The notes beneath the pieces were generated by a model that had not been told where the DNA came from, did not search any database, and saw only the letters and a list, made by a program, of their open reading frames with translations. DNA of 64,000 nt from Escherichia phage APCEc01: sequence record NC_029091.1. One strand, written 5' to 3'. The position numbers were made by a program, and so were the translations under genes. This document shows, in pieces, positions 1 to 60,893 of the stretch (within the stretch, counting starts at the first letter, position 1; each line of letters begins with the position of its first letter).

Positions 1-1023
1 ATGGCTGAATGGATAGATAATGAATTTGCTTATCGTGCGTTTTCTCACCTCCCTCGTTTTAGACAAATCAATAATTCAAGCACATTTAAATTAACGTTTC
101 GTTGTCCAGTTTGTGGCGACTCCCAGACAGATGCAATGAAAGCCCGCGGTTGGTATTACGGTGGTACTCCTGGTAATGTACATTGCTATAACTGTCAATA
201 CCACAATACAATTTCAGGATACTTAAAAGAGTACGATGAAGAGCTTTATCGCGAGTATCTAATGGAAGTTCGTAAAGAAAAAGCTAGAATGGAACCAAAG
301 ATTGAAAAGGTTCCTGAAGCTAAGCCGGAGCCAGAGAAAAAGACTATAAATTCTTTGCCGTCTTGTTCTCGTCTGGACAAGCTGCCTGAAGAGCATCCTA
401 TTGTGAAATATGTTAAGACTCGGTGTATTCCTAAAGAATCATGGAACAGATTATGGTTCACATTAGAATGGCCCAAATTGGTCAACAAGATTCAACCTGG
501 TACGTATAAGAAAGAGATTCCCGAACCACGTTTAGTTATTCCTATTTTTAATAAAGATGGGAAGGCCGAGTCATTCCAAGGACGTGCACTTCGTAAAGAT
601 GCTCCTCAGAAATATATCACTATTAAAGCGTTTGAGTCTGCAACAAAAATTTATGGTGTTGAACGTGTTAAGGAAGGGGACGTCTGGGTAATGGAAGGCC
701 CTATTGATAGTTTATTCATACCCAATGCAATCGCTATTACAGGCGGCTCGATAGATTTAGATGTGGTACCATTTAAAGAACGTCGGGTATGGGTAATGGA
801 TAATGAACCTAGGCATCCGGATACTATAGCTCGCATGAAGCGATTAGTTGATGCAGGCGAACGTGTCATGTTCTGGGACCGAGCTCCATGGAGATCAAAG
901 GATGTGAATGATATGGTAATGAAAGAAAATGCAACACCACAAGAAATTTTAGAATATATGAAACAGAATATTTCAAGTGGGTTGCATGCTAAAATGAGAT
1001 TATCTCGTTATTCGAAGATTTAA
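1..1023 (+). CDS. 61: DNA primase gp61
   Basis: 340 aa. Zn-ribbon CPVCGDS...CYNCQ, TOPRIM-like EGPIDSLF/DNEPRHPDT. Collinear with remembered T4 gp61 (342 aa). Confidence 0.95.
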   Translation: MAEWIDNEFAYRAFSHLPRFRQINNSSTFKLTFRCPVCGDSQTDAMKARGWYYGGTPGNVHCYNCQYHNTISGYLKEYDEELYREYLMEVRKEKARMEPKIEKVPEAKPEPEKKTINSLPSCSRLDKLPEEHPIVKYVKTRCIPKESWNRLWFTLEWPKLVNKIQPGTYKKEIPEPRLVIPIFNKDGKAESFQGRALRKDAPQKYITIKAFESATKIYGVERVKEGDVWVMEGPIDSLFIPNAIAITGGSIDLDVVPFKERRVWVMDNEPRHPDTIARMKRLVDAGERVMFWDRAPWRSKDVNDMVMKENATPQEILEYMKQNISSGLHAKMRLSRYSKI

Positions 1024-1217
1024 ACAAGCCCTATAATAGCAAAGGCCAAATCAACTACAGTATCCAATGGAACAGAAGGAACTATAATACCATGGGCAAC
1101 TAACAATGGTGCAATCCCGAAGTTCCATGAAATAATGCCACCTACAACTATTGCAGCGATAGCAGTTTTCTTTTTATTGCCTTTAATAGCGTTGATTAAC
1201 GATGGAAGTTTAAACAT
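1020..1217 (-). CDS. Small predicted 2-TM membrane protein, convergent with gene 61
   Basis: 65 aa with two hydrophobic stretches. Strong SD AAGGAG 5 nt upstream of the ATG on the minus strand. Its stop overlaps the gene 61 stop. Confidence 0.6.
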   Translation of the reverse strand: MFKLPSLINAIKGNKKKTAIAAIVVGGIISWNFGIAPLLVAHGIIVPSVPLDTVVDLAFAIIGLV

Positions 1218-1305
1218 AATATCTCCTTAGTTACCTATTATTTATTACGCTTTATAAAATTAATGTTAGAATTAACTCTCTTATACTGAATTGAAAGGAA
1301 AAATA

Positions 1306-1827
1306 ATGGCACACTTTAACGAATGTTCACAACTTATTTCTGGTGTTGATAAAGCGGAAGAAGCTTATTTTAATGCTCTGATTCACGAAGATAAAGACCC
1401 ACTGCAGGTAATGCTTGATATGCAGAAATCTTTACAGGTTCGTCTGGCAAATGACAAGCCTGAACATAACAAACATCCTGATGAATTGGCCACTGCTGGT
1501 GATGTTGTTGATTGGCTGCGTAATCAGAAAGATTATATTGATGATGAATTCCGTGAACTGCTGACTTCACTTGGCGGTATGAGCAATGGTGAAAAAGCCG
1601 CCAGCAGTGTATGGAAGCCGTGGAAGGCACAACATGCTGAATATCGAAATCGTCGTATCGATGAACTGTCTCCTGAAGACCAGCTTGAAATTAAATTTGA
1701 AATGATTGATATTCTGCATTTCGTTCTAAATATGTTCCAAGGTCTAGGTCTTTCGGCTGAAGAAATCTTTAAACTTTACTACTTGAAAAACCAACACAAC
1801 TTTGAACGTCAGGATAATGGTTACTGA
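1306..1827 (+). CDS. 56: dCTPase/dUTPase (dCTP pyrophosphatase) gp56
   Basis: MAHFNEC... near-collinear with remembered T4 gp56 (171 aa), e.g. ELSPEDQLEIKFE, KLYYLKN. The ATG at 1306 follows AAAGGA. The track start at 1291 is a TTG extension. Confidence 0.93.
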   Translation: MAHFNECSQLISGVDKAEEAYFNALIHEDKDPLQVMLDMQKSLQVRLANDKPEHNKHPDELATAGDVVDWLRNQKDYIDDEFRELLTSLGGMSNGEKAASSVWKPWKAQHAEYRNRRIDELSPEDQLEIKFEMIDILHFVLNMFQGLGLSAEEIFKLYYLKNQHNFERQDNGY

Positions 1828-3690: not shown

Positions 3691-4272
3691 ATGACATGTC
3701 AATCTGAACTTCAAGAACGTGAATACCTAACAAATCTGATTGATAGCAAATTCACCCGCCAAGAACAAAACATTCTCTGGGCTTGCACCGATTCTAAGGA
3801 AGACCCGGATTTCCACTATGAATTAGACCATCTTGTTCGTAAGCATATGACTTCTACAGCACCAGTAGAACTCTACCGTGGTGTAACTCCAGAAGAAGTA
3901 GAACGTCTTTCCCTTCTTTCTGTTGGATGCCATTGGTCTCCTGGACGAGTAACGTCGTTCACAACTGATTTCAGTACAGCTCGTCAATTCTCCGGGAGAT
4001 GGGAATATCAGACGTACACTATTCTTAGTCTCAGGAATGCTCCATTCATTTTTGATTACTACCAAAATATGGTTAACATTGTACTCGCCGGAAAGAACCC
4101 TAAGCATGTTATGGAAGAAACTCGTATCGATGTCCTAGATATGATTGAATCTGAACAAGAGTACATGGTCTCAGGCATCTCTCGATTTGAGATTGTGGAA
4201 ATTGAAGACTTAGAATATGACCCTTTATCTCGATTATACAAAATCATTCATTTGAAAATGTTGAATTTTTAG
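3691..4272 (+). CDS. modB: ADP-ribosyltransferase, ModB position
   Basis: 193 aa. R-S-E ART triad visible: LYRGV, VTSFTTD, EQEYMVSG. Paralog of the next ORF. T4 transcription order is modB then modA. Confidence 0.75.
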   Translation: MTCQSELQEREYLTNLIDSKFTRQEQNILWACTDSKEDPDFHYELDHLVRKHMTSTAPVELYRGVTPEEVERLSLLSVGCHWSPGRVTSFTTDFSTARQFSGRWEYQTYTILSLRNAPFIFDYYQNMVNIVLAGKNPKHVMEETRIDVLDMIESEQEYMVSGISRFEIVEIEDLEYDPLSRLYKIIHLKMLNF

Positions 4273-4329: not shown

Positions 4330-4938
4330 ATGTTTATGCCGTATAACGAGTGTGAAATTGAAGAAATGGTTCGTCGTGCTCAAAACCCCGAATATCAAGA
4401 TGTATTGCAGTACGAAATTGATAGTCAATTCAACGATAATGAACAAAGCATCCTTTGGCAGTGTATGGAAAACAAGCCAGACTGTATTCAACAGGAGTTA
4501 AGTTCAATCGTTCGTAGAAATTGGACGTCTTCTGTTCCTGAGACAATGTATCGTGGAATCTCTAAGAAAACTATGGCCACACTTGATGATAAAGGCATTG
4601 GTAGTATTATTAAATTTGACAGAGTAATGAGCTTCAGCCCAGTGTTCGGTGTAGCACGTAACTTTGCTTCGTATAATTTTTACGGAACATTTAATATGTT
4701 CTGCATCAAAGATGCACCATTTGCTTTCAACTTCCGTGAACATATGCTTAACATGATTCTGGCTGCGCCATCTTGTGAGTTCAATGGAGCTTTCCCTGAA
4801 GCGACAAGACGGTCTAATGCTAGACTTATATCCGACGAATGTGAATTTATGCTCCCTATAGGGACTACACTGCGTGTAGATTCTATTATTCAAGATGGAC
4901 GTTATACAATCTGGAATCTGTCTATTGTCAGTTACTGA
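4330..4938 (+). CDS. modA: ADP-ribosyltransferase, ModA position
   Basis: 202 aa. MYRGI, VMSFSPV, ECEFMLP triad. AGGAG SD. Confidence 0.75.
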   Translation: MFMPYNECEIEEMVRRAQNPEYQDVLQYEIDSQFNDNEQSILWQCMENKPDCIQQELSSIVRRNWTSSVPETMYRGISKKTMATLDDKGIGSIIKFDRVMSFSPVFGVARNFASYNFYGTFNMFCIKDAPFAFNFREHMLNMILAAPSCEFNGAFPEATRRSNARLISDECEFMLPIGTTLRVDSIIQDGRYTIWNLSIVSY

Positions 4939-51938: not shown

Positions 51939-52235
51939 ATGATTTTAACTGAACAAGAAACTATGGTTCTTCGTGAACGTATTAAAACTATTCTGTCTGT
52001 AGGCGTTCATTGTGTTGTATTTGAAAAGGCTAACGGTGATGTTCGTACGATGTTTGCCTCCCGCGATGAACTTGAAGTCAAATATGAAAATAACAATCCG
52101 GCAACAGAAGTTCGTTATGAACCTCGTGAATCAGTTCGAGCATTCGATACCAAGTTAGGTCAGTGGCGTTCTTTCCGCCTTGATAAAGTAATTTCGGTTG
52201 ATGGTACTCCGGTAGAACGTTTGCTTCTTATGTAA
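51939..52235 (+). CDS. Hypothetical protein (98 aa), cd.1 position
   Basis: ATG directly after the cd stop. Confidence 0.6.
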   Translation: MILTEQETMVLRERIKTILSVGVHCVVFEKANGDVRTMFASRDELEVKYENNNPATEVRYEPRESVRAFDTKLGQWRSFRLDKVISVDGTPVERLLLM

Positions 52236-52292
52236 TATGCTTTACGACTAGTATGATATTATTAATCTATCGTCAAACAACAAGGAAATAAG

Positions 52293-52625
52293 ATGTCTGA
52301 AGTACAACTCCCAATTCGTGCTGTTGGTGAATATGTCATTCTGGTTTCTGAACCCGCTCAAGCAGGTGATGAAGAAGTTACAGAATCAGGACTTGTGATT
52401 GGTAAACGTGTTCAAGGTGAAGTTCCTGAACTATGTGTAGTTCATTCTGTAGGTCCTGATGTTCCTGAAGGTTTTGTTGAAGTCGGTGATTTGACTCCAC
52501 TACCAGTTGGACAAATTCGAAATGTTCCACATCCATTTGTGGCTTTGGGACTTAAACAACCTAAAGAAATTAAACAGAAATTCGTAACATGCCACTATAA
52601 AGCTATTCCGTGTCTTTATAAGTGA
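52293..52625 (+). CDS. 31: Co-chaperonin gp31 (GroES analogue)
   Basis: 110 aa. Almost identical to remembered T4 gp31 ([34 protein letters not shown]...[11 protein letters not shown]). Confidence 0.96.
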
Positions 52626-52632
52626 TATAAAT
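52625..52632 (+). promoter_or_regulatory. Late promoter TATAAATA upstream of rIII
   Basis: Exact consensus immediately after the gene 31 stop. Confidence 0.6.
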
Positions 52633-52749
52633 AACTATATGAAGAGAACACTCTTCTAAGCGGTAGCCTACAACTGAGAGACTTGTCGAAAGAAGGTGAA
52701 ATTCAGACGAACGTGGCTACTAAATATTATCTCGAATTGAGAATTTAAA

Positions 52750-52998
52750 ATGATTAAACAATTACAACACGCTCTTGAACTGCAACGAAACGCATGGAAT
52801 AACGGTCACGAAAACTACGGCGCGTCGATTGATGTTGAAGCCGAAGCACTGGAAATCCTGCATTATTTCAAACATCTGAACCCGGTACAGGCAGCTTTGG
52901 CTTCTGAACTGGAAGCAAAAGATGAACTGAAATATGCTAAGCCTTTGGCTTCTGCAGCTCGTAAAGCAGTACGTCATTTTGTTATTACCCTTAAATAA
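52750..52998 (+). CDS. rIII: rIII lysis-inhibition accessory protein
   Basis: 82 aa (same as T4). Lies after gene 31. Helical. Confidence 0.8.
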   Translation: MIKQLQHALELQRNAWNNGHENYGASIDVEAEALEILHYFKHLNPVQAALASELEAKDELKYAKPLASAARKAVRHFVITLK

Positions 52999-53295
52999 GT
53001 TTTAGGTGATTCGCTACCTTAAGTGCGGCTAGAAAATCGAGGAGCCGTCGAACTGTCTGATTAATGATTTGCGAATCATTATAGTTTTAAGGCCCCGGCA
53101 GTTTTACGGTGTACCTCTTGAATGTATTTTGTACTATCACGCGTCAGAAAAAGGTTATCTGTCTAAGTCGTGGTTGGTATGATGACGGGTTTATGGTTAT
53201 CCTGTCGGTAAATATTCAAAACCTAAGTACCCCTTTGAGGGCTTTCGCAGGCAATGCCAATAAGTCCTGCATTTTCATTTAAAAGAGAATTTATA

Positions 53296-53472
53296 ATGGC
53301 AAAACAAGTTAAAGCAAAGAAAGCAGTTGAAAAGAAAGTTGGTGATTCTAAACGCGCTGGCTACAAGCGTGGGTCGAACTCTCGTATCAATCAAACTGTT
53401 GAGAAGATCATGCGCCGAGCACGTGCGGTTCTTCGAGATGATGCTTCTCGTTTTGGAAAGGTTGTTGCATAA
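53296..53472 (+). CDS. Highly basic small protein (58 aa)
   Basis: MAKQVKAKKAVEKKVGDSKRAGYKRGSNSRINQTVEKIMRRARAVLRDD... An in-frame upstream ATG at 53254 is possible. Followed by a strong terminator. Confidence 0.55.
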   Translation: MAKQVKAKKAVEKKVGDSKRAGYKRGSNSRINQTVEKIMRRARAVLRDDASRFGKVVA

Positions 53473-53477
53473 TTTTA

Positions 53478-53499
53478 GGGAGACTTCGGTCTCCCTTTT
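53478..53499 (+). terminator. Intrinsic terminator
   Basis: GGGAGAC-TTCG-GTCTCCC followed by TTTT. The hairpin is identical to the one after gene 32. Confidence 0.85.
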
Positions 53500-53531
53500 G
53501 TGCGTTTAGGGCGGAAAAAGTTTAAAAAGAT

Positions 53532-53560
53532 GTTTACTCTCCTGTAGGATGTGTTACTAT
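53532..53560 (+). promoter_or_regulatory. T4-type early promoter (TATAGAC family)
   Basis: GTTTAC, 17-nt spacer, TGt + TACTAT. Confidence 0.7.
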
Positions 53561-53602
53561 AGACTTGTACCACCTAATCAATAAAACAACCTGGAGAACA
53601 AA

Positions 53603-53971
53603 ATGAAAATCAATCTGAACTCATACATCAAATGTAAAGACCATGATGGTTATAAAGCTATCGAAATTAAAGAATTCCAGTGGATGTTATACAAAGAGCA
53701 ATTTGAGTTCGTAGGTTGTATGACCCCTGAAGGTCCTTCTGATGATTTCTCTTGGAAAATTGTGTTAGCAAACTTTTTCACAGGTGACACATACGAATTA
53801 AAAACTATTATTACCGGTAAAATTCGTTCAGAAACATATGTTGACGAAGAAACTGGTTACTCTGAAGATGTTACATGGTATCAAAATGGACGCATTACCG
53901 CAGATAACCTGATCGAAAAAATGAAAGCCAAAGGTGTTTTAAATTTAGACAATTGGATTAAAGTTGCATAA
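53603..53971 (+). CDS. Hypothetical protein (122 aa)
   Basis: GGAG SD; promoter-proximal. Confidence 0.65.
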   Translation: MKINLNSYIKCKDHDGYKAIEIKEFQWMLYKEQFEFVGCMTPEGPSDDFSWKIVLANFFTGDTYELKTIITGKIRSETYVDEETGYSEDVTWYQNGRITADNLIEKMKAKGVLNLDNWIKVA

Positions 53972-53975
53972 AACA

Positions 53976-54004
53976 GTTTACTTTGGTACAGGTTATGTTA
54001 TTAT
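53976..54004 (+). promoter_or_regulatory. T4-type early promoter within a 10-bp perfect stem-loop
   Basis: GTTTAC, 17-nt spacer, TGt + TATTAT. TGGTACAGGT/ACCTGTACCA inverted repeat. Confidence 0.75.
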
Positions 54005-54045
54005 AGACCTGTACCAACAAACAACTTAAACATCTGGAGAATAAA

Positions 54046-54411
54046 ATGAACTACACCAACTTCGAACGTAAATATGTTTCTAACGGTATTGCTGGTTCTT
54101 CTGAAGTTATTTGCTTATGGAAACACGAAAACGGTACAGTTTGTGAAATCGAACAGTGCATGACTCCTAATTACGTTTATATGCGATTTGAAAATGGTAT
54201 CACGGTTTCAATCACGATGGAAGGTTCAAATTTTAAAATTGCATTAGATGATGATTTCCGTCAGCGTGATTTAGGTACTCATCCTTGCTGGAATGGTGTT
54301 AATCGTAAACTTCTGGTTAAAACTTGGATTCGTCATATCCTGAGTAACCGAGCTAAACCTGAACATCTTGAAGCAATCTTTGATGTAGTTCTTAACGAAT
54401 TTGATATCTAA
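54046..54411 (+). CDS. Hypothetical protein (121 aa)
   Basis: GGAG SD; promoter-proximal. Confidence 0.65.
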   Translation: MNYTNFERKYVSNGIAGSSEVICLWKHENGTVCEIEQCMTPNYVYMRFENGITVSITMEGSNFKIALDDDFRQRDLGTHPCWNGVNRKLLVKTWIRHILSNRAKPEHLEAIFDVVLNEFDI

Positions 54412-54418
54412 ATTAATT

Positions 54419-54434
54419 GGGAGCCGAAGCTCCC
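54419..54434. other. Stable hairpin whose UUCG loop reads on the minus strand
   Basis: Plus strand GGGAGC-CGAA-GCTCCC. There is no T-run on the plus strand. Confidence 0.6.
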
Positions 54435-54446
54435 ACTGAGGAAATT

Positions 54447-55061
54447 ATGTTTAAAGTTAATACTTTTTATAAAATGAATTTTAAAAATGGGGATATTACT
54501 CCACACCTTAAAAACATGTTCTCATATGACCTTATTGAGCCTTTTGAAGTTTTAGAAGTTACTGATGCCGGCTCAGTTTGTGAAATTAGAACTTCTGAAG
54601 GTAAAATTTATCAGGCCGGTGTTGGTAAATTCAGTAATTGTTTTACTTTAATATTCTCGACCGATTTAGATGAGCATTTTATTGAATGTCCTAACCCTAA
54701 GGTCTATGAAGTTCCACATCAAGAAACTAAGAAAAATGGACCGCACGAATATACGAAGGTTGAAACTCCTCACGGCGTGATGTGGCGACATAACTCTCCT
54801 TTTGGAAGTAAAGGAACATTTGCTCAACTGGCTAAGCCCTACGACGATGAAAAATATGTAGTAGTCCTTTTATCTGAACAGGGTACTCAAGACCGTGGAT
54901 GCCAGCGTTCTGGTTTATTGAGTGAACTCGAAGCTCATAACCTAGCACGTGAATTCGTTGAGAAAAATCCTGGTTCTGAAGCTCTAGTCATGAAAGCAAT
55001 TACTCAATATATCACTGCTCAACCTGTTGTTCATCCGGTAGAAATTAATTTCATTAAGTAG
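54447..55061 (+). CDS. Hypothetical protein (204 aa); N-terminal domain related to the dispersed paralog family
   Basis: MFKVNTFYKMN...FEVLEVTDAGSVCEIRTSEGKIYQAGVGKF...DLDEHFIEC. The track start at 54417 lies inside the hairpin and is rejected. Confidence 0.65.
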   Translation: MFKVNTFYKMNFKNGDITPHLKNMFSYDLIEPFEVLEVTDAGSVCEIRTSEGKIYQAGVGKFSNCFTLIFSTDLDEHFIECPNPKVYEVPHQETKKNGPHEYTKVETPHGVMWRHNSPFGSKGTFAQLAKPYDDEKYVVVLLSEQGTQDRGCQRSGLLSELEAHNLAREFVEKNPGSEALVMKAITQYITAQPVVHPVEINFIK

Positions 55062-55091
55062 TGTACATCCAAGGACGGATTAGAGTATAAT
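55061..55091 (+). promoter_or_regulatory. T4-type early promoter (CCAAGGA family)
   Basis: GTGTAC, 19-nt spacer, TATAAT. Confidence 0.6.
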
Positions 55092-55115
55092 GATTTCTTT
55101 AGTAAGTGGAAAAAT

Positions 55116-55313
55116 ATGAAATTTTTAATAGCACAAACAGTCCAATTAAAAGGTGTTGGAATCCCTGGGATGATTTTTAAAGTTCTCAACGAATTTAAAA
55201 CTGCCGCTGGAATTATCAATGAAGCGTATGCTGTTCAATGGGTTGATGGGACTTCTGACATACGTATGGGTAAAGAGTTATCTCCTATTAAAGGGTTGAA
55301 ACATGTTGAATAA
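55116..55313 (+). CDS. Hypothetical protein (65 aa)
   Basis: Promoter-proximal ORF. Confidence 0.6.
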   Translation: MKFLIAQTVQLKGVGIPGMIFKVLNEFKTAAGIINEAYAVQWVDGTSDIRMGKELSPIKGLKHVE

Positions 55314-55521
55314 ATTAATCCAGAAATTGTTTGGTACGGAAATGATTGAAGTTACTTATCGTGTAACCGACGTTTTTCCATATTACGCGGAAAACCGTTT
55401 AGAACCATACGTTACGTCAATTAAAATGCCTAAAAATGACAGAAATTTATCTATCGAAGACCGTATACCTGGATACGGACATTGGGCTGATGTTGAAATT
55501 ATAAGTGTTAAAGATGTCTGA
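55303..55521 (+). CDS. Hypothetical protein (72 aa)
   Basis: Overlaps neighbouring ORFs at both ends. Confidence 0.55.
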   Translation: MLNKLIQKLFGTEMIEVTYRVTDVFPYYAENRLEPYVTSIKMPKNDRNLSIEDRIPGYGHWADVEIISVKDV

Positions 55522-55972
55522 ATTAGAAATAAGAAGTAATTTCAAATGGCCGTCATGTGCATTAAGTAACTTTGCTCAATGGCCTTTTGTTATGGATGGT
55601 ATTCAATTCGGAGGTCTTGAAGGATTTCTCCAAGGATGTAAGGTGAAAAATGTTGAACAACAAAGACGTATATTTGGGTTGTCTGGATTGGCTGCACAGC
55701 AAGCTGGAAGGTCTTACGCAAGAGCTCAGGACCGTGGGACTCTCTTCTGGTTAGGAGTTCCATTTTCAAGATACTCCGAAGCGTGGAAAGAATTATACAC
55801 AAATGCATATTTTGAAGCCGCGATCCAAAACAAGGGGTTTCGTGATGCCTTACAAGCCTCTAAAGGAAAAATTTTGAAGCACAGCATGGCCAGCCACCTA
55901 ACAAAAGATGATACAATACTAACTGAAGATGAATTTATTGACGTGTTAAACCTATTAAGAGACTCTTTATGA
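55514..55972 (+). CDS. NADAR (YbiA/DUF1768)-like protein
   Basis: 152 aa. LSNFAQWPFVMDGIQFGGLEGFLQGCKV aligns by eye with the E. coli YbiA block FSNFAAWPIKVDGKTWPTSEHYFQAQKF. A downstream W...F(E/R)..L...K.L.H block also aligns. Confidence 0.5.
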   Translation: MSELEIRSNFKWPSCALSNFAQWPFVMDGIQFGGLEGFLQGCKVKNVEQQRRIFGLSGLAAQQAGRSYARAQDRGTLFWLGVPFSRYSEAWKELYTNAYFEAAIQNKGFRDALQASKGKILKHSMASHLTKDDTILTEDEFIDVLNLLRDSL

Positions 55973-56793
55973 AGCCTACTATTTTGACTGATATTGATGG
56001 TGTATGTTTAAGCTGGCAATCTGGACTTCCTTATTTTGCCCAAAAATATAACCTTCCATTAGAACATATTTTAAAAATGATTCAGGACGAAAAATTTATT
56101 TCTCCTGGTAAACTGTTCAATACCGACGATAACCTTGGTAAACAATTAATAGAAAAATATAATAGCTCTGATTTTATTCGTTACTTAGCGCCTTATTCTG
56201 ATGCTCTTCGAGTTATCAATAAACTAAAAGAAGACTATAATTTTGTAGCCGTGACGGCGCTAGGTGATTCAATTGATGCTCGATTGAATAGACAATTTAA
56301 TTTGAATGCTTTGTTCCCAGGCGCTTTCTCTGAAGTAATGATGTGTGGTCATGATTCTTCAAAGGAACAATTATTCGAACTAGCTAAAACAAAATATAAC
56401 GTAATTTGTTACGTTGACGATTTAGCTCATCATTGTGACCATGCGGCAGAAATTCTTAATGTACCGATTTATTGGTTGGCTCGTGGTGAACGTGATGCCA
56501 TTCCTCGTACTGCACAACGTGTACACACGTGGGATGATATTGAATCTCGTTTGGTTCTGCCTAAGAATAATTCAGATTCAGATCGTGAAGACCTTTTAAA
56601 ACGATTGGCGGATTTGCTTAAAGAATCTGGTGCAACAAGTCCAGGTGCATGGCCCAATCAAATTGGTGGCCCCTCGACAACACGTACTCCATATACCTGG
56701 CGAACCCAAGGACCAACTGATATGCAGCCGTGGTGGACGATTCAAAACTTTCCTTTAGATTCGTCTAAATGGACTTGGTCTATAAATTGTTAA
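55969..56793 (+). CDS. HAD-superfamily phosphatase-like protein (30.2 position)
   Basis: 274 aa. N-terminal DxDG motif LTDIDGVCL and a later YVDD. Trp/Pro-rich C-terminal tail. Confidence 0.6.
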   Translation: MKPTILTDIDGVCLSWQSGLPYFAQKYNLPLEHILKMIQDEKFISPGKLFNTDDNLGKQLIEKYNSSDFIRYLAPYSDALRVINKLKEDYNFVAVTALGDSIDARLNRQFNLNALFPGAFSEVMMCGHDSSKEQLFELAKTKYNVICYVDDLAHHCDHAAEILNVPIYWLARGERDAIPRTAQRVHTWDDIESRLVLPKNNSDSDREDLLKRLADLLKESGATSPGAWPNQIGGPSTTRTPYTWRTQGPTDMQPWWTIQNFPLDSSKWTWSINC

Positions 56794-56802
56794 GGGTTAA
56801 TT

Positions 56803-57072
56803 ATGTTTGTAGTTCATGATATTACAGATGGCAAAAATACCACACGTGACTACGGTCACGTTAACATGTTCTTTCGAGACTGGCCATTGTTTCGTTCAGT
56901 AAAAGACGCAGAAATATTTAAAGAGTGTGTTGAACAAGGGTTCATCTACATTTCAGAATACTATGTTGAAGGACTCGGTAAATGGATTACAACTTATCAG
57001 AAAACGCTGAAATCGCTTCTAGATGAAGTGGCTTATAATAGAACCGTAACCAAAATCGAGGACATCAAATGA
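56803..57072 (+). CDS. Hypothetical protein (89 aa), 30.1 position
   Basis: AAGGG SD. 4-nt overlap with the ligase gene. Confidence 0.6.
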   Translation: MFVVHDITDGKNTTRDYGHVNMFFRDWPLFRSVKDAEIFKECVEQGFIYISEYYVEGLGKWITTYQKTLKSLLDEVAYNRTVTKIEDIK

Positions 57073-58562
57073 TTTTAGATATTTTAAACCAAATAGCTGC
57101 GATCGGTTCTACTAAAACAAAACAGGAAATCCTTAAGAAAAATAAGGACAACAAATTACTTGAACGTGTGTATCGTTTAACATATGCACGTGGTATCCAG
57201 TATTATATTAAGAAATGGCCAGGACCAGGTGAAAGGTCTCAAGCGTATGGTCTTCTTGAATTAGATGACATGTTGGATTTTATTGAGTTCACATTAGCCA
57301 CTCGTAAACTCACTGGTAATGCTGCAATTAAAGAGCTCATGGGTTATATCGCTGATGGTAAACCTGATGATGTAGAAGTCCTTCGTCGTGTAATGATGCG
57401 CGACCTTGAAGTAGGTGCTTCAGTGTCTATCGCGAATAAGGTGTGGCCTGGACTTATTCAATTGCAACCACAGATGTTAGCATCTGCATATGACGAGAAA
57501 TTGATTACTAAAAATATTAAATGGCCCGCATTTGCCCAATTAAAAGCAGATGGTGCTCGTTGTTTCGCTGAAGTTCGCGATGATGGTGTTCAATTCTTTT
57601 CTCGTGCCGGCAATGAATATCATGGTCTTACTCTATTAGCGGATGAACTAATGGAAATGACTAAAGAAGCTCGTGAAAGACACCCTAATGGGGTTTTAAT
57701 CGACGGTGAATTAGTTTACCATTCATTTGATATTAAAAAGGCTGTGAGCTCAGGAAATGACCTGTCGTTCTTATTTGGTGATAATGAAGAATCCGAAGAA
57801 GTACAAGTTGCGGACCGTAGCACTTCAAACGGTTTAGCAAATAAATCTCTTCAAGGGACTATTTCTCCTAAAGAAGCTGAAGGTATGGTTCTTCAAGCCT
57901 GGGACTATGTTCCTTTAGATGAAGTCTATTCTGATGGCAAAATTAAAGGTCAGAAATACGATGTTCGTTTTGCTGCTCTTGAAAATATGGCTGAAGGCTT
58001 TAAACGAATTGAGCCAATTGAAAATCAGTTAGTTCGTAATCTTGACGAAGCTAAAGTGGTTTATAAAAAATATGTTGACCAAGGTCTTGAAGGTATTATC
58101 CTTAAAAACCGTGATTCGTATTGGGAAAACAAACGTTCTAAGAACCTAATTAAATTTAAAGAAGTTATTGATATCGCTTTAGAAGTTGTAGGATACTATG
58201 AACACTCTAAAGACCCTAACAAATTAGGTGGTGTCGAACTCGTATCACGTTGTCGTCGTATTACAACCGATTGCGGTTCAGGTTTTAAAGATACAACTCA
58301 TAAAACAGTTGACGGTGTAAAGGTTCTTATTCCTTTAGACGAGCGTCATGATTTAGACCGTGAACGATTAATGACCGAAGCTCGTGAAGGTAAATTAATT
58401 GGACGTATCGCTGATTGTGAATGTAATGGTTGGGTTCATTCTAAAGGCCGTGAAGGCACTGTAGGTATTTTCCTCCCAATTATTAAAGGGTTCCGTTTTG
58501 ATAAAACAGAAGCGGATTCGTTTGAAGACGTATTTGGACCGTGGTCCCAGACAGGTTTATAA
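57069..58562 (+). CDS. 30: ATP-dependent DNA ligase gp30
   Basis: 497 aa. Adenylation motif AQLKADGAR, and EGIILK, LIKFK motifs. Confidence 0.95.
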   Translation: MILDILNQIAAIGSTKTKQEILKKNKDNKLLERVYRLTYARGIQYYIKKWPGPGERSQAYGLLELDDMLDFIEFTLATRKLTGNAAIKELMGYIADGKPDDVEVLRRVMMRDLEVGASVSIANKVWPGLIQLQPQMLASAYDEKLITKNIKWPAFAQLKADGARCFAEVRDDGVQFFSRAGNEYHGLTLLADELMEMTKEARERHPNGVLIDGELVYHSFDIKKAVSSGNDLSFLFGDNEESEEVQVADRSTSNGLANKSLQGTISPKEAEGMVLQAWDYVPLDEVYSDGKIKGQKYDVRFAALENMAEGFKRIEPIENQLVRNLDEAKVVYKKYVDQGLEGIILKNRDSYWENKRSKNLIKFKEVIDIALEVVGYYEHSKDPNKLGGVELVSRCRRITTDCGSGFKDTTHKTVDGVKVLIPLDERHDLDRERLMTEAREGKLIGRIADCECNGWVHSKGREGTVGIFLPIIKGFRFDKTEADSFEDVFGPWSQTGL

Positions 58563-58750
58563 TGAAAGCTTATTTAGAAACAGTTATTGTAGCTAAGAAG
58601 GATGGTGGAGATGTTTCCACCTCTTGCTCTCAGATTATATTAGATTTTCCTAATAACGATTCCTATCATATTTTTATGGACAATTTCGATAAGTACGAAA
58701 AAGGCTCTAATTTTGAAGTTTATCGTACTTTGCTTCCGATTGTGGATTAA
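58562..58750 (+). CDS. Hypothetical protein (62 aa)
   Basis: TAATG coupling with the ligase gene. Followed by a terminator. Confidence 0.55.
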   Translation: MKAYLETVIVAKKDGGDVSTSCSQIILDFPNNDSYHIFMDNFDKYEKGSNFEVYRTLLPIVD

Positions 58751-58769
58751 GAGCCTTCGGGCTCTTTTT
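58751..58769 (+). terminator. Intrinsic terminator
   Basis: GAGCC-TTCG-GGCTC followed by T5. Confidence 0.85.
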
Positions 58770-58777
58770 GGCATAAA

Positions 58778-58785
58778 TATAAATT
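58778..58785 (+). promoter_or_regulatory. Probable late promoter for alt
   Basis: TATAAATT (7 of 8 match to TATAAATA) 21 nt upstream of the alt ATG. An overlapping CATAAATA lies at 58772. Confidence 0.5.
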
Positions 58786-58805
58786 ATTACTAAAAGGAAA
58801 ACACT

Positions 58806-60893
58806 ATGTCTGAACAATTAAATGAAGTGTTTGAATCTGAAGGCAGTCTTCCTGTCGTCAATTTGAACCCTAAAGCTAAAGTTCCACAAGTCTGGAAAAT
58901 TGGTGATATCGATACAAATATTGTAGTTCGTTTATTCTCTTACCTTTCCGAAGGCGACGCTGTAAAACAAGTTAAACTTGGCGACAAATACGCTCATGTT
59001 GTTATTATGAGTCTGTCTGAAAAGGGTAATCTCGCTGAATTGAAAAATGGCCTTGGTCCTGCTCCTATTGATGCAATCAACACCATTTTCAATACAGTAT
59101 ATGAACAAGTTAAAGCTCTTCGTATGGATGCAGTTCTGTTCCGATTCCCTACCAAGAAATTGAAAGGACGTGGACAACAGCTTCAAACTCTTCTTGCTCG
59201 TTTAGTTTCTACTAAAACCGGTGGTCGTTTTAAAGTATTGTCGGCAATGTATCAATTCACAGGTAAACACACCTATGTGATGATGGTTCGTAAAAATGCC
59301 AACATTGAAGATATTAAAGGCATCCCTAACATTAACACAGAGTTGTACACGAAAGTAGATTCTGATGTTGGCGAAGTTTATGTGAGTAAAAAGACCGGCG
59401 AAAAAGTCACCAAAGAAACGGCTATCGCTGGTTCTATTGCTGCTGTAGAAGAAAAACGTAAAGATAAGCCTGTTATTGCTCGTACTAAAATTTCTCGTCG
59501 TGCTATTGCCGCAAGCCAATCTTTAGAAGCTGACCGCCAAGAAGGTGAGTTATTCCAGAAATACGAAAATTCTGCTAAAGAAGTTAGTGGCCCGGCTACA
59601 GCCGAATTACTTCCTGAAGCATATGAAATCGTACTAGCCCAAGCATCATCCACAGCAAAAGGCACTTTAGTTGCTGATATCGAAAATAAGATTTATAATC
59701 GTATTGATGAATCCTTTAGATTTGCTGATGAAGTTTCTTATGGTAGTGTTATTAAGCCAACTTTAGAAAAGTTTGCTAAGAAAATTAAAACTGAAAAAAC
59801 AACATCTGTTAAAGCATTAGCTGCTTTTGTTGAAGCTGCAAACGAAATTGCGGACTCTATTAAAGACGAATGGTTTGAAGATTTTAGACGTGATAATTTC
59901 CAACTGGCCGACGATGTTTTAGCTGAAGTATCTGAAAAAACTTGGAAACAACGTAAATCAGCGTTCTTGTCTAATGTGATGTATACTTATGCACGAGAAT
60001 CGGCTAGAGGCACCTTTAATATAACAATGAATCGGGACCCTAAACAATACTCTGTTGCTGAAAAACGAGCTATTCGCGAATATGCCTCTTCTGCGTATAC
60101 CGATATCAATAATATGTTGTTAGGCCGTTATAAACCGGATTTTTATGATGTTGCAGATGAAGATGAAGTTAAACGCGCTATTGATGGTCTTGATTCGGCG
60201 TTTTTAAATGGAGACCGTTTACCTGAAGGACTAACGTTGTATAGAGCCCAGTCTATCAGAATGCCTATTTACGAAGCAATGGTTAAAAATAAGGTATTCT
60301 ACTTCAGAAACTATGTTTCTACTTCATTAGCTCCTATTATTTTTGGTGGGTTTAAAGAGAACGTTGCCCTTGGACTTGCTCCTGAAGAAGTTCGCAAAGA
60401 GCTTAACATTGACAATAATGACGAAGGTGTTACTATTTCTCCTAGCCTGGCACGTACCGCTATGCATGCGCCAGAACAAATTCGTGTTAATGTTGGATGG
60501 GCCATTGATGGCGCTCATAAAGTTAACGTGATTTATCCCGGACAGTTGAGTAATCACCCTAATGAGCAAGAAATTATTTTGCCTAGAGGCATTCTCTTGC
60601 AGATAAATAAAATTACAGATGCGTCATCTGACACTGGTGCAGGTTTAGAATCCAACCTTAAATTTATTCAAGCTGAAGTCATGTCCTCGGACCAGTTGGA
60701 CGAAGCTGTCATTTACGATGGTGATGTTCTCATGGAAACAGGCGAGGTAGTTGCTATGACGGGTGAAATCGAATCAGATGAGCCGGTATCTTTTGCCTCA
60801 TTTGTAGAAAAAACTAGTGCACCTAAAGGTTTGAAATTGTTAGCATCTTTAATGGATTTAGAATCAGTTCCGTTTAAATTTATCCAAGGATAG
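58806..60893 (+). CDS. alt: Packaged ADP-ribosyltransferase Alt
   Basis: 695 aa (T4 682). C-terminal ART triad LYRAQS, YVSTSLAP, EQEIILPRG. Lies between 30 and 54. Confidence 0.88.
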   Translation: MSEQLNEVFESEGSLPVVNLNPKAKVPQVWKIGDIDTNIVVRLFSYLSEGDAVKQVKLGDKYAHVVIMSLSEKGNLAELKNGLGPAPIDAINTIFNTVYEQVKALRMDAVLFRFPTKKLKGRGQQLQTLLARLVSTKTGGRFKVLSAMYQFTGKHTYVMMVRKNANIEDIKGIPNINTELYTKVDSDVGEVYVSKKTGEKVTKETAIAGSIAAVEEKRKDKPVIARTKISRRAIAASQSLEADRQEGELFQKYENSAKEVSGPATAELLPEAYEIVLAQASSTAKGTLVADIENKIYNRIDESFRFADEVSYGSVIKPTLEKFAKKIKTEKTTSVKALAAFVEAANEIADSIKDEWFEDFRRDNFQLADDVLAEVSEKTWKQRKSAFLSNVMYTYARESARGTFNITMNRDPKQYSVAEKRAIREYASSAYTDINNMLLGRYKPDFYDVADEDEVKRAIDGLDSAFLNGDRLPEGLTLYRAQSIRMPIYEAMVKNKVFYFRNYVSTSLAPIIFGGFKENVALGLAPEEVRKELNIDNNDEGVTISPSLARTAMHAPEQIRVNVGWAIDGAHKVNVIYPGQLSNHPNEQEIILPRGILLQINKITDASSDTGAGLESNLKFIQAEVMSSDQLDEAVIYDGDVLMETGEVVAMTGEIESDEPVSFASFVEKTSAPKGLKLLASLMDLESVPFKFIQG

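Follow-up and report, generated by a model that had tools for sequence, protein, structure and literature searches.

We analyzed a 64,000-nucleotide stretch of the genome of Escherichia phage APCEc01 (NC_029091.1; hereafter, the window), which encodes, in the cluster of small genes upstream of the DNA ligase gene, a 152-amino-acid (aa) protein that is the ortholog of gp30.3 of phage T4. The T4 gene has been renamed adfN (anti-DarT factor NADAR) after T-even resistance to the host toxin-antitoxin system DarTG1 was mapped to it (Johannesman et al. 2025, PMC11825919), and we use this name for the APCEc01 gene as well. The original prediction, made from the sequence of the window, had recognized in this open reading frame (ORF) a relative of YbiA and other NADAR proteins and had proposed a role in counter-defense against DarT. 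The relationships of the gene and its product are described below, and the coordinates of all features are collected in Table 1.

The adfN gene and its T4 ortholog

An in-frame GTG lies at position 55505, three codons 5' of the adfN ATG; starting from the ATG, the ORF consists of 459 nucleotides, equal in length to the annotated T4 gene 30.3, and E36 and K43, at which T4 gp30.3 was mutated in published work, carry identical numbers. The product is identical to T4 gp30.3 (NP_049816) in 146 of the 152 positions (96%), in a gapless alignment. The six substitutions relative to T4 (K11R, E89P, I120V, M125I, H128G and D139A) are conservative or surface-type, and all fall in variable columns of a 61-sequence alignment of the family. 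The DNA sequences of the two genes are 88.9% identical, and because the differing codons include 37 synonymous and only 6 non-synonymous ones, this comparison indicates strong purifying selection on adfN.

The single match in a Pfam scan of the product is to PF08010, “Bacteriophage protein GP30.3” (Phage_30_3; E = 2.2e-69), with 232 bits against a gathering cut-off of 36 and with positions 1-138 of the 138 in the model covered. The PHROGs match, phrog_652, is annotated as unknown function, and a search of NCBIfam with the product gave no match. In a tblastn search, the protein matched 1509 phage records, most of them T4-like phages of Escherichia, Klebsiella, Aeromonas, Acinetobacter and Vibrio; judged by these sequence comparisons, the ORF is a real gene far beyond chance. 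Orthology to T4 30.3 is evident from both the sequence and the synteny, given that the 30.4/30.5-like genes, 30.2, 30.1 and the ligase gene appear here in the T4 order. A 2-kb query around adfN matched 664 phage records, nearly all of them T4-like coliphages, and showed 100% identity to Shigella phage JK36.

A small internal, out-of-frame gene, 30.3' (75 aa), is annotated within T4 30.3. The equivalent frame in the window, inside adfN on the + strand (55650..55877), is broken, leaving as remnants a 34-aa ORF (55650..55754) and a 24-aa ORF (55803..55877), which speaks against 30.3' as a conserved protein-coding gene.

Fold and conserved residues of AdfN

The original prediction anticipated a direct match to the NADAR domain model PF08719, which did not materialize: the window protein does not match PF08719 at E ≤ 1, the gp30.3 family having its own Pfam entry, and a phmmer search of the Protein Data Bank (PDB) sequences with the window protein found no match. 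NADAR membership is nevertheless supported by three independent lines of evidence. In an alignment of the window protein and 59 homologs (alignment A2, from which the T4 reference row was excluded for structure modeling), 23 of the 60 proteins match PF08719, the best with E = 1.5e-7. The hidden Markov model (HMM) of the gp30.3 family retrieves E. coli YbiA (PDB 2b3w) with E = 0.0088, aligning LSNF..F..DG....s.EGFLqslKf with the YbiA segment FSNFAAWPIKVDGKTWPTSEHYFQAQKF, so that E36 and K43 are paired with the Glu and Lys of the YbiA motif SEHYFQAQK. Finally, the AlphaFold2 model obtained from the 60-sequence alignment (predicted local distance difference test score, pLDDT, 92.8; predicted template modeling score, pTM, 0.88) adopts the YbiA fold of the NADAR superfamily. 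Thus, the similarity to YbiA that was originally noticed by eye is real but becomes visible only with profile or structure methods.

The N-terminal block originally read as SNFA.WP...DG......E.F.Q..K occurs exactly as described, spanning S18-K43, and contains, after SNF...DG, the catalytic Glu (E36) and Lys (K43) of the E-x-[FY]-x-Q-x-x-K signature of NADARs. Invariant across the 61 sequences are P13, A16, L17, S18, N19, F20, F25, E36, G37, F38, Q40, K43, Q50, A61, A112, H123, L136 and T137. The second motif of the original reading, a single helix of the form W...F...L...K.L.H, is present only approximately: the actual sequence is F109-RDA-L113-QAS-K117-GKILK-H123, and in the model this segment is not one helix but a helix that leads into the final beta-strand (residues 120-123), although its His is indeed invariant. 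This residue, H123, terminates the last strand, at a position that tells the NADAR families apart: phage NADARs have His there, members of the YbiA family Glu, and DarG1 Asp (PMC11125620; PMC11543638). The C-terminal helix is full-length, with the ORF reaching residue 152, and the C-terminus differs from that of T4 only by D139A.

The same comparison bears on whether the enzyme is alive. The original prediction pointed out, correctly, that the His of the YbiA block EHYFQ is replaced in the window protein (EGFLQ), and drew from this a doubt about activity that does not hold. If AdfN were an inactive relic, killed by the loss of this His, the Gly in the window protein would be its trace. However, all 61 family sequences have G37, the T4 protein with the same EGFLQ is active both in vitro and in vivo (PMC11825919; PMC11125620), and adfN evolves, by the codon comparison, under strong purifying selection. 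Because the Gly is family-wide and is found in an active enzyme, EGFLQ is no argument against activity, and we regard inactivation as having a next to negligible chance of being true.

Probable counter-defense against DarTG1 and its alternatives

The function of the T4 protein has been characterized in two experimental studies. The purified T4 NADAR (gp30.3) hydrolyzes guanosine-ADP-ribose (ADPr), and not thymidine-ADPr, on oligonucleotides (Cihlova et al. 2024, PMC11125620). T4 or T2 lacking adfN lose the ability to form plaques on hosts carrying DarTG1, whereas RB69 is fully rescued on such hosts when adfN is provided in trans; the RB69 allele itself carries a frameshift that removes the last 15 residues, and T4 AdfN truncated at the RB69 endpoint shows reduced activity (PMC11825919). 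In the same study, the E36A and K43A variants of T4 AdfN gave only partial rescue, purified AdfN stripped ADP-ribose from DarT1-modified DNA while E36A was inactive, and AdfN did not affect the thymine-modifying DarTG2. The T4 NADAR also acts on RNA carrying ADP-ribosylated guanine (G-ADPr) (PMC11833690), and the phage NADAR appears in the list of enzymes reversing G-ADPr but is absent from that of enzymes reversing C-ADPr (PMC12945103). The construct of the T4 NADAR is given in the methods of PMC11125620 as “gp30.3; residues 1-208”, whereas both the annotated T4 gp30.3 and the window ORF have 152 aa; the larger number may include tag residues or may be a typing error.

These experiments on a 96%-identical ortholog agree with the original proposal of a phage NADAR acting in anti-DarT counter-defense (PMC11825919; PMC11125620). 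We estimate at about 0.93 the probability that the window ORF, with its gp30.3 orthology, NADAR fold, conserved E36, K43 and H123, intact C-terminal helix and signature of purifying selection, is an AdfN/gp30.3 ortholog in the full sense, that is, a minimal, core-only NADAR-fold enzyme that counters DarTG1 by removing guanine ADP-ribose. By analogy with T4, the window allele would behave like T4 AdfN. Under this scenario, the host toxin DarT1 would ADP-ribosylate guanines in the replicating phage DNA, AdfN would hydrolyze the N-glycosidic bond that joins ADP-ribose to the guanine N2, and removal of the adduct would let replication proceed, so that the abortive-infection defense by DarTG1 would fail. 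AdfN would then be an orphan antitoxin, a functional equivalent of DarG1 without a toxin.

Several points weigh against this interpretation. The function was demonstrated for the T4 protein and is carried over to the window allele by its likeness, and the window protein on its own matches neither the NADAR Pfam model nor, by phmmer, any PDB sequence. Furthermore, co-expression rescue of DarT1 toxicity, which was originally put forward as a check, turned out negative: the T4 protein failed to rescue uninfected E. coli from DarT1 in two studies, and the phages T5 and Bas25 were barely rescued (PMC11825919; PMC11125620). Given these failures, and with T4-type AdfN being fully active only in T-even infections (PMC11825919), a further T-even factor seems to be required, and the mechanism is incompletely understood. 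A broader version of the counter-defense reading, in which the T4-type NADAR also polices guanine ADP-ribosylation of DNA or RNA by Alt and the Mod proteins, or the T-even dependence reflects a phage partner that recruits the core-only enzyme to replicating DNA, finds no support in the present observations and appears to us very unlikely.

The comparison with related systems places AdfN among the NADARs. Compared to T4 gp30.3, with which it shares the length, the gapless alignment, the flanking genes, the three key residues, EGFLQ and the C-terminal helix, the window protein differs by the six substitutions, the interrupted 30.3' frame and the far greater divergence of the neighboring genes than of adfN itself. 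DarG1, which is the antitoxin NADAR in DarTG1 systems (for example, the Geobacter lovleyi NADAR, PDB 8bat, and the E. coli C7 NADAR), differs from AdfN in that its gene adjoins the toxin gene, in extra N-terminal elements that form an electropositive DNA channel (PMC12945103), in having Asp in place of the phage His123 (PMC11125620; PMC11543638) and in rescuing uninfected cells from DarT1, which T4 AdfN does not (PMC11825919; PMC11125620). E. coli YbiA (PF08719) is only ~20% identical, with Glu in the last strand and EHYFQ for EGFLQ, and is encoded on the chromosome in a LexA-controlled operon, acting also on riboflavin intermediates (PMC11125620; PMC11543638). [quoted passage not shown] AdfA (T4 gp61.2), the other T-even anti-DarT1 factor against the same defense, is a non-enzymatic DarT1 binder that is unrelated in sequence. 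Its gene was sought in the window, but the corresponding position falls just outside: in T4, 61.2 is located upstream of gene 61, whose ATG opens the window.

The original prediction named three ADP-ribosyltransferases in the window, ModB, ModA and Alt, and offered a NADAR directed at their products as an alternative. The presence of all three transferases is confirmed by profile matches, with the qualification that the ModB and ModA labels rest on position, because both Mod-family ORFs resemble T4 ModB more by BLASTP. The two proteins are 31-38% identical to T4 ModA/ModB; in BLASTP, the ORF starting at 4330 matches ModB with 1e-31 and ModA with 3e-20, and that starting at 3691 matches ModB only.

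In the self-directed alternative, the NADAR would clear off-target guanine ADP-ribose from DNA or RNA modified by the phage's own Alt, ModA and ModB, with the anti-DarT1 activity as a side effect. Such a role would fit the co-occurrence of Alt and the two Mod-family transferases with adfN in the window, and pierisin-type guanine-specific ADP-ribosyltransferases share the R-S-E clade with Alt and Mod. Removal of G-ADPr from RNA by the T4 NADAR (PMC11833690) points in the same direction. Yet adfN is in an operon with neither, the Mod genes being ~51 kb and alt ~2.8 kb away, and AdfN does not co-vary with the Mod proteins, being 96% identical to its T4 counterpart against 31-38% for the Mods. The literature examined treats Alt, ModA and ModB as ADP-ribosyltransferases of proteins, adds RNAylation for ModB, and reports a guanine base as a target of none of them. 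In addition, the adfN deletion mutants of T4 and T2 were propagated and titered on hosts lacking DarTG1, the defect being reported for hosts that carry it (PMC11825919). There is no support for a link between AdfN and the phage's own transferases, and we consider it very unlikely that self-directed erasure is the main function.

An enzyme that mainly degrades low-molecular-weight ADP-ribose derivatives, for example, immune signaling nucleotides, instead of DNA adducts is an option suggested by the fold and catalytic block common to AdfN and YbiA, which acts on riboflavin intermediates, by the prediction of Iyer et al. 2022 that soluble ADPr derivatives are the preferred substrates of viral NADARs, and by the bare core of AdfN, devoid of the DNA-binding extensions of DarG1 (PMC12945103). 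Nonetheless, the T4 protein is active on ADP-ribosylated DNA and the deletion phenotype is specific to DarTG1 (PMC11825919; PMC11125620), and the last strand carries His in place of the Glu diagnostic of the YbiA family, all of which makes a primarily small-molecule function extremely improbable.

Gene neighborhood and implications

Genes around adfN are tightly packed, as is typical of the T4 early gene clusters (Table 1). The overlap of 30.4 with 30.3 exists in T4 as well, and judging from the arrangement, adfN is likely translationally coupled with the 30.4-like ORF in one transcript. The order downstream is that of T4, 30.3-30.2-30.1-30-alt. Scanning 52000..58800 for promoters and terminators gave no more than background, with 23 promoter-like matches vs 20.7 expected and 4 terminator-like matches vs 4.4 expected.

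Table 1. Features of adfN, its product and its surroundings in the APCEc01 window
Feature	Position	Strand	Details
adfN (T4 gene 30.3 ortholog), phage-type NADAR, predicted guanine-ADP-ribose glycohydrolase	55514..55972	+	ATG to TGA; 152 aa plus stop
Conserved N-terminal catalytic block S18-K43 (SNFAQWPFVMDGIQFGGLEGFLQGCK)	55565..55642	+	invariant S18 N19 F20 F25 E36 G37 F38 Q40 K43
Codon GAA, E36, catalytic glutamate	55619..55621	+	read from sequence; invariant; T4 E36A data in PMC11825919
Codon AAG, K43, conserved ADP-ribose-contacting lysine	55640..55642	+	read from sequence; invariant; T4 K43A data in PMC11825919
Codon CAC, H123, last-strand residue marking phage (gp30.3-type) NADARs	55880..55882	+	invariant; ends model strand 120-123
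C-terminal alpha-helix, residues 138-151, intact	55925..55966	+	AlphaFold2 model
ATGTCTGA overlap, adfN start codon within the end of the 30.4-like 72-aa ORF (55303..55521)	55514..55521	+	sequence
ATGA overlap, adfN stop with the start of the 30.2-like gene	55969..55972	+	sequence
30.2-like HAD-fold gene	55969..56793	+	69% identical to T4 gp30.2
DUF3045 gene, T4 30.1	56803..57072		Pfam and T4 comparison; 58% identical
DNA ligase	57069..58562		T4 comparison; 64% identical
Alt ADP-ribosyltransferase	58806..60893	+	PF03496 E = 2.9e-28; phrog_802 E = 1.3e-261
Tandem pair of Mod-family ADP-ribosyltransferase genes	3691..4272 and 4330..4938	+	phrog_832 “RNA polymerase ADP-ribosylase”, E = 8.5e-38 and 1e-37

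Compared to T4, the region 53600..58562 is a mosaic: AdfN (96%) and the 30.7-like ORF (93%) are highly similar, the ligase (64%), 30.1 (58%), 30.4 (53%), 30.5 (64%) and 30.8 (37%) much less so. Within 30.2 (69% overall), conservation extends only over residues 1-180 or so, and the C-terminal tail is replaced. This pattern points to either unusually tight constraint on adfN or exchange of the segment by recombination among T-even phages. A 204-aa ORF (54447..55061, + strand; phrog_17531, unknown function, E = 5e-146) occupies the place of T4 30.6 (95 aa), to which it shows no similarity, and this position looks like a variable slot of the 30.x cluster.

The coupled gene 30.2 was considered as the T-even co-factor or a conserved partner of AdfN and was dropped for want of a conserved linkage in the two distant gp30.3 lineages sampled: the genes flanking the homologs P0040 and P0064 matched no PHROG and were not similar to gp30.2 (BLASTP E = 1.7). 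Both homologs reside in phage-like contexts, on contigs of 308 kb and 82 kb, respectively. More generally, distant gp30.3-type NADARs (~38% identity) are found on large metagenomic contigs, up to 308 kb, that are rich in small ORFs without annotation and resemble jumbo phages. At the P0040 locus (L002, of the loci L002-L004), the region 3-5 kb downstream contains a NUDIX gene and a gene for a Thg1-like protein, and at the P0064 locus (L005, of L005-L007), a GGDEF-domain gene lies 2 kb upstream.

At the start of the window, the primase gene 61 (1..1023) and the gene 56 dCTPase ORF (1291..1827) are separated by only 268 base pairs (1024..1290). T4 carries the dam methyltransferase gene between 61 and 56, and the phage appears to lack dam at this position. 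Nor was the homing endonuclease gene segF noticed after gene 56, where no specific check was made.

The function of adfN is already known, having been published for T4 in 2024-2025, and the window contributes no more than one further, nearly identical allele. The case has value as a benchmark, in which a NADAR was recognized from raw sequence and its biology was correctly predicted. For phage biology, the gene shows how an orphan, antitoxin-like enzyme of a phage can undo a toxin-antitoxin defense that ADP-ribosylates phage DNA.
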